A stretch of DNA of 43,248 nucleotides from an uncultured Candidatus Saccharibacteria bacterium (GTDB taxonomy: Bacteria > Patescibacteriota > Dojkabacteria > SC72), in assembly GCA_964557565.1 (NCBI GenBank), contig CAZLAH010000002.1:17682-60929 (forward strand), read 5' to 3'. The notes below the pieces were generated by a model, which was not told the origin of the DNA, made no database searches, and worked only from the letters and a program-made list of their open reading frames with translations. Positions 39,455 through 43,248 of this stretch are shown one piece after another; position 1 is the stretch's first letter; the number at the start of each line of letters is the position of its first letter. Both the position numbers and the translations under genes were made by a program.

Positions 39455-40123
39455 ATGGAGTATACACCACTAACAGAGTGGATTTTGGAGCATGGGGTAT
39501 CTCAACAGACTCTAGATCTTTTTGTAACAATAACTATACTTGCAACAATAGTAAGTGTATCTAGATATATCTTTGGTTCTAAAACATACGGTATATATGC
39601 ACCAATAATATTGGCAATTTCATACTCATACACAGGATTTAGATATGGATTCGCTATAACCTTAATTGTAATTGTTACCACCCTACTCTCATATTCCATA
39701 CTTAAAAGAATCAGAATGCACTATATAACTAGAATAGCCATTAATTACTGCTTACTTTCCATTGCTCTCGTATTCTTCCTGCTTGTGATCAATCGATACG
39801 GCTTAGGGCTTGAGAATATGGCACAGATACCATCTCTAGCAGTTATATCAATAGCTGCTCTTTCTGATTTCTTCATCAAACAGTTTGTTCAAAAATCATT
39901 TAAATCCTCAATAGCCATACTGTTTAACACAATGGTCATAGCTTCAATAGGATGGTTTGTAATAACAAGAGATGTCATTACTGCATATACAATCAACAAT
40001 CTTTGGATTATACCCCTACTGATCATTGTAAATATTGTAATAGGACAGTTTAAGGGATTAAGAATAAAGGACCTCTTTAGGTTTAGTTCCATATTACAAG
40101 ACAAAGAAAATGTTTCAAAATAG
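39455..40123 (+). CDS. Seven-TM membrane protein of the type usually fused to an inactive transglutaminase (7TM_transglut-like), here stand-alone
   Basis: Seven hydrophobic helices can be counted by eye. The N-terminal motif VSRYIFGSKTYGIYAPIILAISY matches my recollection of that family's R-x-[IV]-x-G-x-x-T-[FY]-G-x-[FY]-x-P consensus. The ORF overlaps the next one by 14 nt. Confidence 0.55.
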   Translation: MEYTPLTEWILEHGVSQQTLDLFVTITILATIVSVSRYIFGSKTYGIYAPIILAISYSYTGFRYGFAITLIVIVTTLLSYSILKRIRMHYITRIAINYCLLSIALVFFLLVINRYGLGLENMAQIPSLAVISIAALSDFFIKQFVQKSFKSSIAILFNTMVIASIGWFVITRDVITAYTINNLWIIPLLIIVNIVIGQFKGLRIKDLFRFSSILQDKENVSK

Positions 40124-41564
40124 CAAGATAAAAGAGATACTAGGCTTAAACAGACGAAATCAGGAATATGTTCGTCCATATAACTCTCCTTCTGCTAAAA
40201 GGATTGCAGACAACAAGATCCTTACCAAACAAGTTCTTTCCAGGGAAGGTATTAATACTCCTTCTGTATACAAATTGATTAAAAATGCAAAACAACTGAA
40301 ATTCCTAGACTGGGATTCTTTACCAAAGAGTTTTGTCATAAAGCCAAATAAAGGTACTGGTGGTAATGGAATAATTGTGTTTTACGGAAAGAAGAAAGGT
40401 GAAAACTCTTGGATAAGACCAAATGGTACTACAATGTCTCAAAAGGATATAGCCCTACATATTGAGAATATTTTGGAAGGGAGATTCTCAATGGGAGATA
40501 GAAGTGACATTGCAATCATAGAAGAAAGAGTTAGAACAGACCCATTGCTTAAGCAATATTCCTTTAAGGGCGTACCTGATATTAGAATCATTTGTTTCAA
40601 TGGAGTACCAATAATGGCTATGACTAGGCTTCCAACAAGAAGATCAAATGGTACTGCAAATTTACACTCAGGAGCTATTTGTACTGGCTTAGATATTAGT
40701 ACAGGAATTACTACCTACTCAATGCAAATGAATACGAAGAGTCTCTTTAGTGATACCTATGAGGGTATTGAATATACTACAGATCTGAAGGAAAACAAGA
40801 AATTAAGTGGTATTCAGATACCAAATTGGGACGAAATCTTAACAATAGCTCTTAAGTGCCAGAAGGCTAGCAAGCTTGGATATATTGGTGTTGACATAGC
40901 CCTAGATGCCGAAAAAGGACCAGTTGTATTCGAATTGAACGCTAGACCAGGTTTAGGCATACAAGTTGCTAATCAAGCAGGATTAAGATGGAGGTTAGAG
41001 AAAGTAAAAGGCTTGGAAATAAAGAGCATAAAGCATGGTATTAGAGTAGCGAAGAATCTTTTCGGGGGAGAGATAGAAGAAAGCATAGAAGCAATAAGTG
41101 GAAGGAAAGTCGTAAGTATTACAGAGAAGATAGTTCTTTACAACAAGGAAGCTAATTTACAGAAAAGTATCAAAACCTCCGACAGAGAGGTTGCTACTGC
41201 CTTCATGGATACAGGAATTCAAAGCTCTAGAATATCTACAAGCCTCGCGAGTAGACTTGGATTCATTGGCACTATGAAATATTTCAATTCTTTGAATATT
41301 CCTAAACGATTTGAATCACTCAAGGATGCACAAGAATACATTGACCAAAACCCAAACTTTTCAGGCCAAGAGAGTGTAAAAAGGATTGCAAAAATAATCG
41401 AAGATGGGATAATAAAAATAAGACCTGTAATAGATGTAAGAATTAAAATTTCTGGTGAGATACAAGAGATAGAGATGGTCATAACTGAAGATTTAGAATA
41501 TCTTGTAGTTATTGGACGAAACAATCTTAAAGGATATTTAATTGATACCAGTAAAACATTCTAA
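40110..41564 (+). CDS. RimK-related 'alpha-L-glutamate ligase-like' ATP-grasp fused to a C-terminal retropepsin-like (PF05618-type) domain
   Basis: ATP-grasp part: ILGLNRRNQEYVRPYNSPSAKRIADNKILTK, FVIKPNKGTGGNGI, GVPDIRIICFNGVPIMAMTRLPTRRSNGTANLHSGAICTGLDISTG, LGYIGVDIALDAEKGPVVFELNARPGLGIQVANQAGL. C-terminal part: AFMDTGIQSSRIS (DTG at 41208-41216) and VVIGRNNLKGYLIDTSKTF. Confidence 0.75.
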   Translation: MFQNSKIKEILGLNRRNQEYVRPYNSPSAKRIADNKILTKQVLSREGINTPSVYKLIKNAKQLKFLDWDSLPKSFVIKPNKGTGGNGIIVFYGKKKGENSWIRPNGTTMSQKDIALHIENILEGRFSMGDRSDIAIIEERVRTDPLLKQYSFKGVPDIRIICFNGVPIMAMTRLPTRRSNGTANLHSGAICTGLDISTGITTYSMQMNTKSLFSDTYEGIEYTTDLKENKKLSGIQIPNWDEILTIALKCQKASKLGYIGVDIALDAEKGPVVFELNARPGLGIQVANQAGLRWRLEKVKGLEIKSIKHGIRVAKNLFGGEIEESIEAISGRKVVSITEKIVLYNKEANLQKSIKTSDREVATAFMDTGIQSSRISTSLASRLGFIGTMKYFNSLNIPKRFESLKDAQEYIDQNPNFSGQESVKRIAKIIEDGIIKIRPVIDVRIKISGEIQEIEMVITEDLEYLVVIGRNNLKGYLIDTSKTF

Positions 41565-42548
41565 ATGAAGACATATTCAGAATATTTAAAAGAAGCAGGG
41601 AATGTACACTTAGCATACTATGTAGAAGCTGCAGATGAGTTGGGGATCAAATATTCAATAGTAGTACCAAAGCTGATGGCTATGTTTGAATATAAAAAGA
41701 AGCATTGGTTCATCATAAATACAGTAACTCCCCTAACCTCTTCAACAAGTGCAACAATTTGCAAAAGAAAGCAGCTTACTAATCAAGTATTAAGCAAATT
41801 CGGATTACCAGTACCATATCAAGAAAATATCTCAAGTGCTGTTAATGCAATAAAGTTCTTCAATAAATACAAAGATATAGTCATTAAACCGACTCAACAG
41901 CTTGGTGGACATGGAGTATCAATACTCCCACAAAGCGAAGAACAGGTTATAAAAGCATATGAAATCGCTTTAGAGAGTTCTCATTCCAAAACCTCCAACA
42001 AAGTAATTGCAGAAGAATTTGTAACTGGAGAGAACTATCGCTTTCTAGTAGTTGGTGATAAGGTTATAGGTGTTGTAAGAAGAAAGGCAGCTCATGTTAT
42101 TGGCAATAGCAAGAACACTATAAGAGAACTAATACAGAAAGCAAATGAGGAGAAAGAGAAAGGCCTACTAATGCCAATCCTCATGGACAATGAGGTTATA
42201 CTGAAACTTCAAAGATCAAATTTAGACCTAGAATCTGTTCCCGATGAAGGAAAAGAGATAATATTAAGGTACAATTGCAATTTAACAACTGGTGGGACTA
42301 CAGAGGAATGTATTAAAGAGGTCCACGATTACTACAAACAGATAGCCATAAAAGCCATCGAAGCTGTAGGCTCAGAGTTTGGAGGTGTAGATATAATTGC
42401 AGAGAATATATCTAAGCCATCTAAAGTCGCAATAAACGAAATTAACTACAATCCAGGATTAAGATTGCATTACAAAGTAGACAAAGGAGAAGCAGTGAAG
42501 GTAGCAGTTCCAGTTATGGAATATATTAGGGATAAATATTTAAGTTAG
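41565..42548 (+). CDS. Stand-alone ATP-grasp ligase of the cyanophycin synthetase (CphA G-domain)/GshF type
   Basis: ICKRKQLTNQVLSKFGLPVP, IVIKPTQQLGGHGVSI, YRFLVVGDKVIGVVRRKAAHVIGNSKNTIRELI, NCNLTTGGTTEE, GGVDIIAENISKP, INEINYNPGLRLH. The ATG directly abuts the previous stop (TAAATG). Confidence 0.7.
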   Translation: MKTYSEYLKEAGNVHLAYYVEAADELGIKYSIVVPKLMAMFEYKKKHWFIINTVTPLTSSTSATICKRKQLTNQVLSKFGLPVPYQENISSAVNAIKFFNKYKDIVIKPTQQLGGHGVSILPQSEEQVIKAYEIALESSHSKTSNKVIAEEFVTGENYRFLVVGDKVIGVVRRKAAHVIGNSKNTIRELIQKANEEKEKGLLMPILMDNEVILKLQRSNLDLESVPDEGKEIILRYNCNLTTGGTTEECIKEVHDYYKQIAIKAIEAVGSEFGGVDIIAENISKPSKVAINEINYNPGLRLHYKVDKGEAVKVAVPVMEYIRDKYLS

Positions 42549-42559
42549 TAAAAACAACA

Positions 42560-43248
42560 ATGAGTAAGATTAAAATACTACAAGGCCTAAATCTAGATTC
42601 TTCAATCTCAACAATTACAATTGAGATACAACAAACAGAGAATGCAGAGAGACTACTGAACCTAGTTAAAAGCTACCATCCCATTTTCGCTAAAGAGTTT
42701 TTCTTCGAGAAAGGCACCCTAACTATAAGATCAAATATCACATTCTTTTGGAGAGAAGTTGCAAATACTCTCATAGATCTTTCAGAAAGCAAAATTGATT
42801 TTGAGAAAACAAAAGATATCGTTGTAAATAAAGTAATAAAAGAAAGACTCTCCTCGATGACAACTATCCCCCTACTCCATACAGCGCATGCCATGCAGCT
42901 AGAAACTACACCTACAATATTAATGAACGAAAGAGTTGAATACACAAAGTCTTACAACAGACATTACACAATTGGTACTGGTAAAAACTCTCAAACTATA
43001 TATTCCATCTCATCTGGTAAAGATTCCAAGATTGCAAAAGAAATACAGAAAGATAAATGGTCTTCCAATCTCATGATCGAAAGATTAGGTCTCCCAATTC
43101 CTAAATGGGAAGTCATAGATACAATCTCGGACATAGAACGTGTATGGGCCAGCTATCAGAAACCTGTAGTAATAAAACCTACTGGCCTAGTTGGAGGACA
43201 CGGAGTTGTAGTAGGAATAGATTCTTTAGAGGAAGCGAAGAAGGCTTT
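42560..43248 (+). CDS. Cyanophycin synthetase-like protein, N-terminal part (N domain plus start of ATP-grasp); continues beyond the window
   Basis: Own translation: MSKIKILQGLNLDSSISTITIEIQ...KDSKIAKEIQKDKWSSNLMIERLGLPIPKWEVI...YQKPVVIKPTGLVGGHGVVVGIDSLEEAKKA... The layout is CphA-like: an N domain of about 160 aa, then an ATP-grasp entry (DK-x-x-[ST], then a VIKP...G-x-G motif). Confidence 0.6.
   Translation, partial: MSKIKILQGLNLDSSISTITIEIQQTENAERLLNLVKSYHPIFAKEFFFEKGTLTIRSNITFFWREVANTLIDLSESKIDFEKTKDIVVNKVIKERLSSMTTIPLLHTAHAMQLETTPTILMNERVEYTKSYNRHYTIGTGKNSQTIYSISSGKDSKIAKEIQKDKWSSNLMIERLGLPIPKWEVIDTISDIERVWASYQKPVVIKPTGLVGGHGVVVGIDSLEEAKKA

Follow-up and report, generated by a model that had tools for sequence, protein, structure and literature searches.

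A single gene in the small genome of an uncultured Patescibacterial organism raises the question of whether an enzyme that ligates amino acids and a protease have been joined in one polypeptide. The gene lies in a 43,248-nucleotide stretch of DNA (hereafter, the window; contig CAZLAH010000002.1 of assembly GCA_964557565.1, positions 17,682 to 60,929 of the forward strand) from a 0.64-Mb genome that is 96% complete and whose nearest relatives in the databases carry the label Candidatus Dojkabacteria or WS6, within the Patescibacteria. It occupies 40110..41564 (all window coordinates given here are on the plus strand), starts with ATG, and reads as an open frame of 484 amino acids: an ATP-grasp ligase, an acidic linker, and a retropepsin-like domain. 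A first-pass annotation made from the sequence alone had proposed an ATP-grasp ligase and a retropepsin-like protease in one chain, and we found that this proposal holds, with PF14397 matching at the N terminus and a PF05618-type fold at the C terminus. Taking sequence and structural models together, we favor the reading that the gene probably encodes a cytoplasmic two-domain enzyme, in which an RloC-type ligase carries a tethered RloA/RimB-type protease, and that it is an all-cytoplasmic relative of the rloABC system.

We recognized residues 333 to 484 (41106..41561) as a diverged PF05618 (RloA/RimB-type) retropepsin-like domain by phmmer, profile comparison, and fold. Pfam by itself argues against this assignment. 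The C-terminal domain scored 14.1 bits against PF05618 (E 0.045), below the gathering cut-off of 27 bits and over profile positions 63-122 only, and PF05618 is precomputed in 0 of the 120 closest homologues. When the organism's own genome was searched in six frames, PF05618 scored 14.3 bits at the fusion domain, and no second PF05618-like gene was detected. When the C-terminal piece was scanned with Pfam, Asp_protease_2 matched over the DTG motif at a sub-threshold E value of 0.014. On Pfam alone, the fusion could thus be an artefact, either of adjacent genes joined by a sequencing or assembly error or of a C-terminal region that is no retropepsin and carries a DTG by chance.

More sensitive searches argued against such an artefact. 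We ran phmmer with residues 326-484 against 1.8e9 representative proteins and obtained 37 matches. When phmmer matches were scanned with Pfam, at least 16 of 20 exceeded the PF05618 gathering cut-off in their own right, and those that passed include the full-length PF14397+PF05618 fusions P0137, P0141, and P0146. We then compared two profiles by hhalign, one built from Dojkabacteria sequences only (A4) and the other from bona fide Patescibacterial PF05618 domains (A5). They aligned over 113 columns with a probability of 97.75% and an E value of 1.3e-12, matching DTG, RP, and IGR of the first to DTG, R(P), and IGR of the second. Searched against the PDB, the domain profile found RloA2 (9g59, 3.7e-10), RloA (9g58, 6.1e-10), and Lpg0085 (2pma, DUF785, 5.3e-7), followed by Ddi1. 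With the Dojkabacteria-only profile, 9g59 (0.0055) and 9g58 (0.037) were still on top.

The predicted fold agreed with the profiles. An AlphaFold2 (AF2) model of residues 320-484 alone, with full-length homologues as alignment rows, reached a mean predicted local distance difference test score (pLDDT) of 85.9 and a predicted template modelling score (pTM) of 0.80. Every Foldseek match of this model in the PDB at E<=1e-3 is a retropepsin. The top six are RloA (9g58), RloA2 (9g59), and Lpg0085 (2pma) structures, with E values of 4e-6 to 9e-5, and Ddi1 and HIV-1 protease come next. The target-normalised TM-scores of 0.52-0.55 are reduced because of a helical insert in the domain, described below. 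The kinship to PF05618 and the retropepsins that had been claimed from the letters was thus borne out by hhalign and by profile and fold matches in the PDB. The PF05618-like ending that had been noticed is also there, as IGRNNLKGYLIDTSKTF at the C terminus. On profile and model evidence, we assign the domain, which has only one DTG half-site, to the PF05618 RloA/RimB family of bacterial retropepsin-like aspartic peptidases as a strongly diverged member.

The reading frame itself is equally well supported. We found 119 full-length homologues of 480-497 amino acids that share the fusion architecture and come from independent assemblies; because of this, we dismiss an assembly accident as the source of the architecture. 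Likewise, the retropepsin-like domain of 66 Dojkabacteria species representatives lies in uninterrupted frames of ~480-513 amino acids wherever the contig permits. A chance match of the C-terminal domain is excluded because the E values were calculated against whole libraries. Taken together with the hhalign probability, the exclusive match of the domain model to retropepsins, and the phmmer matches that pass the Pfam cut-off, these data effectively refute the artefact explanation, to which we leave next to no probability.

We examined the N-terminal part in the same way. The ATP-grasp ligase domain (residues 15-300; 40152..41009), of the RloC/TIGR02291 type, matched PF14397 (ATPgrasp_ST) with an E value of 6.7e-70 and 235.9 bits (cut-off, 31.4). 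Residues 6-303 matched TIGR02291, "alpha-L-glutamate ligase-like protein," with an E value of 7.8e-88 and 294.5 bits, slightly below the cut-off of 314.2. TIGR02291 is by far the best NCBIfam match of the fusion protein, the second being rimK_fam at 59.6 bits. We found that the Mg-ATP motifs GVDI (D262) and ELNARPG (E275, N277, and R279) do not vary across 30 homologues and that "GVDI...ELNARPGL" of the fusion aligns with "GVDIL...VMEVNASPGL" of RimK. When the full-length model was submitted to Foldseek, all matches were ATP-grasp enzymes (ArgX/LysX, Ddl, RimK, and CphA1). We call the ligase intact because of these invariant and aligned motifs and the family and fold matches. The N-terminal domain is therefore predicted to be an intact ATP-grasp amino acid ligase of the RloC type, in keeping with the alpha-L-glutamate-ligase-like ATP-grasp pattern that had been seen over residues 1 to about 315. 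We also considered RimK proper and ruled it out, since the fusion falls below the cut-offs of both TIGR00768 (rimK_fam; 59.6 bits, cut-off 143.4) and PRK10446 (22.1 bits, cut-off 331). Pseudomonas RloC presumably belongs to TIGR02291 as well. The comparison with rimK loci that had been drawn thus stands insofar as the partner is an ATP-grasp ligase; the ligase is of the RloC/TIGR02291 type with a 7TM_transglut partner, not RimK.

If the C-terminal domain is a retropepsin, its catalytic and substrate-binding residues should be recognizable. DSSP of the AF2 model placed strands at residues 333-344 and 359-366, running into D367-T-G, with the next strand at 373-376. Profile alignments put D367-T368-G369 (41208..41216) on the catalytic DTG of RloA, RloA2, and Lpg0085, and D367, the Asp of the D-T/S-G motif, aligns with RloA D48. 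The first-pass annotation had staked its claim on the DTG aligning with the catalytic triad, and its placement of the motif was confirmed; we found no other D[TS]G in the protein. Because this D[TS]G is the only one, the Asp dyad would have to come from a homodimer. Across the 119 homologues, the motif retains D in 118, T in 119, and G in 113; across species representatives, the counts are 66, 67, and 63 of 67.

The helical insert (residues 377-424; 41238..41381), delimited by DSSP and by a gap in hhalign, separates the DTG strand from the flap hairpin. Its helices span residues 377-394 and 404-413 (model positions 58-75 and 85-94). This insert of ~45 residues takes the place of a beta-rich segment of canonical PF05618 and is a gap relative to canonical sequences. 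Residues R382, G384, F392, P398, F401, A407, and Q408 within it are invariant or almost so, and the Arg residues R374 and R382 are both invariant and new in the Dojkabacteria clade. The AF2 model and the alignments then predict a flap beta-hairpin at residues 425-447 (41382..41450), with strands at model positions 106-112 and 115-128. The hairpin includes R438-P439-V440; "RPVI" of the fusion is aligned to "RPVIE/D" of RloA, so that R438 is the equivalent of RloA R114. At the species level, R438 is kept in 63 and P439 in 66 of 67 sequences. Strands at 450-459 and 466-468 precede G469-R470-N471 (41514..41522) and the C-terminal strand. This motif aligns to "iiGRrdL" of canonical PF05618, with G469 in 65 of 65 sequences and R or K at position 470 in 64 of 65. 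We take it to be the second retropepsin signature (hydrophobic-hydrophobic-Gly-Arg-Asp/Asn), comparable to IGRN of HIV-1 protease.

These residues leave two views of what the domain does. Dead protease homologues usually lose the catalytic Asp. Here the DTG Asp and Thr are kept in 66 to 67 of 67 species-level sequences although identity across the domain averages 50-60%, and the Arg-Pro flap and Gly-Arg motifs are retained too. To gauge constraint, we calculated the ratio of nonsynonymous to synonymous substitution rates (dN/dS) for two pairs only; with dS at ~0.9-1.6, near saturation, the ratios of 0.035-0.048 for the ligase domain and 0.072-0.077 for the retropepsin domain are taken here only to indicate constraint. 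They point to strong purifying selection on both domains.

Other observations weigh against an active protease of the RloA kind. The DTG glycine is normally near-invariant; here it is Ser, Ala, Thr, or Val in ~5% of orthologues. The catalytic Asp itself is replaced, with the domain kept, in P0126 (501 amino acids; NTG) and in L016 (ETG), a triple fusion described below. Because of these two variants, a retropepsin domain can evidently persist without catalysis. The Ala that follows the DTG, stressed as a hallmark of retropepsins (PMC12239564), is replaced by I370 in the window; in the clade, V occurs in 37, I in 20, and A in 3 of 67 sequences, and across the homologues the residue is V, I, M, or L in 114 of 119. 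In RloA, K46, R114, and R137 are conserved poly-Glu contacts, and R114A and R137A are the most damaging mutations (PMC12239564). We mapped these residues onto the fusion domain through PDB chain alignments and numbering. The equivalent of K46 is F or Y in 65 of 67 species-level sequences, and at the "DRS" site of R137 there is no Arg in Dojkabacteria and an acidic E/D-D stretch instead. Only one of the three basic residues that bind poly-Glu is thus kept (R438, the equivalent of R114).

These losses suit a pseudo-protease, that is, a retropepsin fold that cleaves no peptide and instead helps the ligase to dimerise or regulates it, or acts as a clamp that binds the growing peptide chain. Such a role is also in line with the well-conserved helical insert, which resembles an added interaction surface, and with the finding that RimB stimulates RimK ATPase and polymer synthesis non-proteolytically (PMC11957791). 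The near-complete retention of Asp and Thr, the two further motifs, and a retropepsin-domain dN/dS of ~0.07 argue the other way, and we regard a pseudo-protease as rather unlikely. Because Asp-Thr, Arg-Pro, and Gly-Arg are kept while two poly-Glu contacts and the Ala are lost, catalysis is likely and specificity has perhaps changed. The residues thus tip us modestly toward an active protease of altered specificity, and its substrate preference may differ from that of RloA and RimB. Separately, the Asp-less homologues P0126 and L016 suggest that the retropepsin module may additionally have a non-catalytic role.

The two domains are joined by a conserved acidic linker, NLFGGEIEESIEAISGR (residues 316-332; 41055..41105), which we defined from the alignment and from AF2 confidence. 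In the homologue alignment, F318, G319, G320, E321, E323, I326, E327, S330, G331, and R332 are invariant. AF2 pLDDT falls below 50 at residues 319-331, so that the linker is predicted to be flexible though it is Glu-rich and nearly invariant. The motif FGGE[IV]EE.[IV]E..[ST]G[RK] is found as well in distant Patescibacterial fusions (P0133, P0137, P0139, P0141, P0146-P0148, and others). Perhaps the linker serves as a pseudo-substrate or is the site at which the protein cuts itself.

Retroviral proteases cut themselves out of polyproteins. By analogy, the protease domain could chiefly cut its own acidic linker (FGGEIEESIEAISGR) and so free a retropepsin dimer and the ligase. A flexible, Glu-rich, and nearly invariant segment placed immediately N-terminal to a domain whose relatives cleave Glu-rich sequence is what this idea would predict. 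The Glu run in the linker is interrupted, however, whereas the minimum is 8 contiguous Glu residues for RloA and 5 for RimB, and the RimBK hybrid of Desulfotalea psychrophila was purified intact. Conservation of the linker may also merely reflect packing against the ligase or the protease domain. We consider self-cleavage as the chief activity very unlikely and retain the reading of a ligase that keeps its tethered protease.

To learn how widespread the fusion is, we surveyed databases for the same architecture, as the first-pass annotation had suggested, and found PF14397+PF05618 fusions to be common in Patescibacteria. The retropepsin-domain profile matched in 100 of 301 sampled Patescibacteria genomes (E<=1e-5). 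Among these 100, ~87 matches lie in frames of 410-820 amino acids and 10 in frames of <200 amino acids. Frames of 750-820 amino acids occur in ~11 of the 301 genomes. Hundreds of public proteins have the PF14397+PF05618 pair precomputed (Falkowbacteria, Moranbacteria, and others), and they are named only "alpha-L-glutamate ligase-like" or hypothetical. The diverged, insert-bearing form that Pfam does not see is present in 66 GTDB species representatives; the search behind this number used the Dojkabacteria-clade alignment A4, so its reach is limited to Dojkabacteria. Those representatives that have a label below phylum rank are named Dojkabacteria or WS6, except for a set of metagenome-assembled genomes labelled "uncultured Candidatus Saccharibacteria." We concluded that the fusion is not rare and that Dojkabacteria have it throughout (66 species representatives).

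Four further loci from other Patescibacteria were inspected individually. Pfam confirmed ATPgrasp_ST plus PF05618 in L014 (451 amino acids) and L017 (433 amino acids) and ATPgrasp_ST plus PF05618 plus MATCAP in L015 (800 amino acids; L015:3474-5876, plus strand). In L016 (784 amino acids; L016:5254-7608, plus strand), Pfam scores ATPgrasp_ST and MATCAP only; the middle domain, which has the ETG, is truncated and sub-Pfam and was found by the broad domain profile A2. The C-terminal MATCAP (DUF1704) domain of the L015 and L016 fusions is a metallo-carboxypeptidase with HExxxH and EEGLA motifs. The joining of a tubulin tyrosine ligase (TTL)-like ligase to MATCAP in these two proteins is reminiscent of the tubulin tyrosination cycle. 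A PKD+7TM_transglut gene lies upstream of the fusion in 4 of 4 loci (L014:2829-4421, L015:1870-3420, and L016:3716-5236 [+] and L017:5996-7477 [-]).

In the window, too, the fusion gene follows a membrane protein gene. The preceding gene (39455..40123) encodes a 222-amino-acid seven-transmembrane (7-TM) protein, an RloB-type 7-TM module by PF14402 and NF052267, and its end overlaps the start of the fusion gene by 14 nucleotides. PF14402 (7TM_transglut) scored 53.3 bits (cut-off, 25) over profile positions 52-247 of 248. The RloB model NF052267 matched at positions 310-508 of 508 only; the protein lacks the extracytoplasmic inactive-transglutaminase domain and any other extracytoplasmic domain.

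Downstream, a gene for a 327-amino-acid ATP-grasp ligase (41565..42548) starts at the base directly after the stop codon of the fusion gene. This ligase is like the cyanophycin synthetase G domain and the GshB part of GshAB, matching NF010623/TIGR02068 with an E value of ~1e-66 at model positions 165-470. A larger ATP-grasp gene follows (42560..43246); its first 229 amino acids are present before the contig end cuts it, and the counterpart in a relative has 563 amino acids. The operon continues on another contig of the same genome, C12 (L020:1-3384), with the tail of the large ATP-grasp gene and a RimK-like gene of 319 amino acids, followed by a convergent MATCAP-like gene (with a run of masked bases, X) and then mreB. 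The locus of the relative, L002, has the order rplJ-rplL, 7TM, fusion, ATP-grasp 328, ATP-grasp 563, and RimK-like 317 and beyond these convergent HD, MATCAP, and MreB genes. The HD gene of L002 is absent between the ATP-grasp tail, RimK-like, MATCAP-like, and mreB genes of contig C12. Three further ATP-grasp genes thus come after the fusion: a CphA G-domain-like gene, the 563-amino-acid gene, and a RimK-like gene (window 41565-43246; L002:9454-13095). The genes for the RloB-like 7-TM protein, the fusion, and the three ATP-grasp ligases make up a tight operon, with a MATCAP-type carboxypeptidase gene adjoining. As a side observation, this amounts to four ATP-grasp ligases in a single operon of a 0.64-Mb genome, directly after rplJ-rplL.

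We also considered ribosomal protein S6, the acceptor of a RimK-type tail, and rejected it as a candidate. The S6 gene (L087:1441-1797, minus strand) is on contig C2, upstream of the window, and its product ends in ...SIKKKELEI, with no Glu-Glu end. Because S6 lacks a Glu-Glu C terminus, this organism is unlikely to glutamylate S6 in the manner of RimK, and this counts against the two-domain reading.

How would a ligase and a protease work in one chain? According to the reading we favor, two fusion chains would pair through their retropepsin domains and thereby form the Asp dyad. The ligase would add amino acids to an acceptor, most likely an acidic alpha-peptide tail or a homopolymer, as RimK does. 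The tethered protease would then limit or recycle the ligase product and might also stimulate the ligase, as RimB does RimK. As ligase and protease are in one cytoplasmic chain, we argue that both act on the same molecule, and cleavage by a fused cytoplasmic protease need not occur outside the cell. A build-and-trim cycle on one substrate, as the first-pass annotation had suggested, would be the most economical mechanism.

A broader idea takes in the neighboring genes. Ligase, retropepsin, and MATCAP form a single chain in some lineages and are neighboring genes in Dojkabacteria. The Patescibacterial module might be a reversible system that tags C termini with peptides or handles a polymer; a TTL-like ATP-grasp ligase, a retropepsin endopeptidase, and a MATCAP-type carboxypeptidase would work in it together with the 7-TM protein, and the Dojkabacteria groove would have been retargeted from poly-Glu to another product, made with the three neighboring cyanophycin-synthetase-like ligases. 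We hold this to be doubtful. If true, the tagging module would parallel, in prokaryotes, the tubulin ligase/MATCAP cycle. Retention of four ATP-grasp ligases and the module in genomes of ~0.64 Mb implies an important function; the Pseudomonas rlo operon, for its part, influences osmotic tolerance, biofilm formation, and antibiotic sensitivity. Since Pfam is blind to the Dojkabacteria retropepsin clade, bacterial aspartic peptidases are under-counted. The single-chain fusion, with the carboxypeptidase added in some lineages, also offers a compact construct for in vitro chemistry.

Finally, we compared the fusion with known systems. Retropepsins proper, such as HIV-1 protease and the RVP domain of Ddi1, share its fold and a single DTG half-site per chain, and both carry a G-R-[DN] motif. 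They are 11-19% identical to the Dojkabacteria domain, which differs from them in its longer flap, its helical insert, and its fusion to a ligase. The other Patescibacterial PF14397+PF05618 fusions are closer, with the same domain order, the same linker motif, and an upstream 7TM_transglut gene. These fusions keep the canonical AK[IV]DTGA, RP, and DRS motifs and are recognized by Pfam, whereas the Dojkabacteria version is below Pfam detection and has an altered groove. Many of them lack the helical insert, and some have an extra C-terminal MATCAP domain.

The first-pass annotation had held that the ligase and the protease are separate genes elsewhere. This is partly true, in that such loci exist, but a RimB-RimK hybrid has been published and is active (PMC11957791), and the Patescibacterial fusions are common. 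In the hybrid, RimBK of D. psychrophila (DP2392), PF05618 is N-terminal to RimK and is proteolytically active on poly-Glu tails (Little et al. 2025, J Biol Chem, PMC11957791). RimB cleaves poly-Glu and stimulates RimK, and 12% of the genomes with rim genes have RimBK, mainly those of Flavobacteriales and Rhodobacterales (PMC11957791). As in the Dojkabacteria fusion, a PF05618 retropepsin-like peptidase and an ATP-grasp alpha-amino-acid ligase share one cytoplasmic chain. The protease is N-terminal in RimBK and C-terminal in the Dojkabacteria fusion, however, and the Dojkabacteria ligase is of the TIGR02291/PF14397 type, not RimK. Furthermore, rim loci lack the 7-TM partner that the Dojkabacteria fusion has, S6 of the Dojkabacteria genome lacks a Glu C terminus, and the fusion with a C-terminal protease is found in Patescibacteria rather than in Flavobacteriales and Rhodobacterales.

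The rloABC operon of Pseudomonas and Vibrio is the other close relative. There, the secreted RloA cleaves (Glu)>=8 (Lormand et al. 2025, mBio, PMC12239564). Deletion of rloB or rloC suppresses rloA-null phenotypes, and the reported distribution of RloB is 96% Proteobacteria, with Patescibacteria unmentioned (PMC12239564). In both systems, a PF05618 retropepsin, a 7TM_transglut protein, and an ATP-grasp ligase are modules of one operon, and RloA structures are the best PDB matches of the Dojkabacteria C-terminal domain by profile and by fold. RloA has a signal peptide and a disulfide and is secreted as a protein of its own, whereas the Dojkabacteria protease is fused to a cytoplasmic ligase; the N terminus of the fusion, MFQNSKIKEILGLNRRNQ, has no hydrophobic signal segment. 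The periplasmic inactive transglutaminase domain of RloB is absent in Dojkabacteria, and other Patescibacteria have N-terminal PKD domains in its stead. The Dojkabacteria operon adds ATP-grasp genes, and the equivalents of RloA K46 and R137 are not conserved in the Dojkabacteria domain.

Our literature search found no paper on an RloC-type ligase with a C-terminal retropepsin, the amidoligase neighborhoods of Iyer et al. 2009 lying outside its coverage, and a full-text search by Pfam and TIGRFAM identifiers found no paper on the fusion. The pairing of such a ligase with such a protease is already known in other bacteria, so the Dojkabacteria form is new without being a new kind of system. We concluded that the fusion is the rlo module set recast as a RimBK-like single cytoplasmic chain, with the domain order reversed and, in Dojkabacteria, the groove re-modelled.

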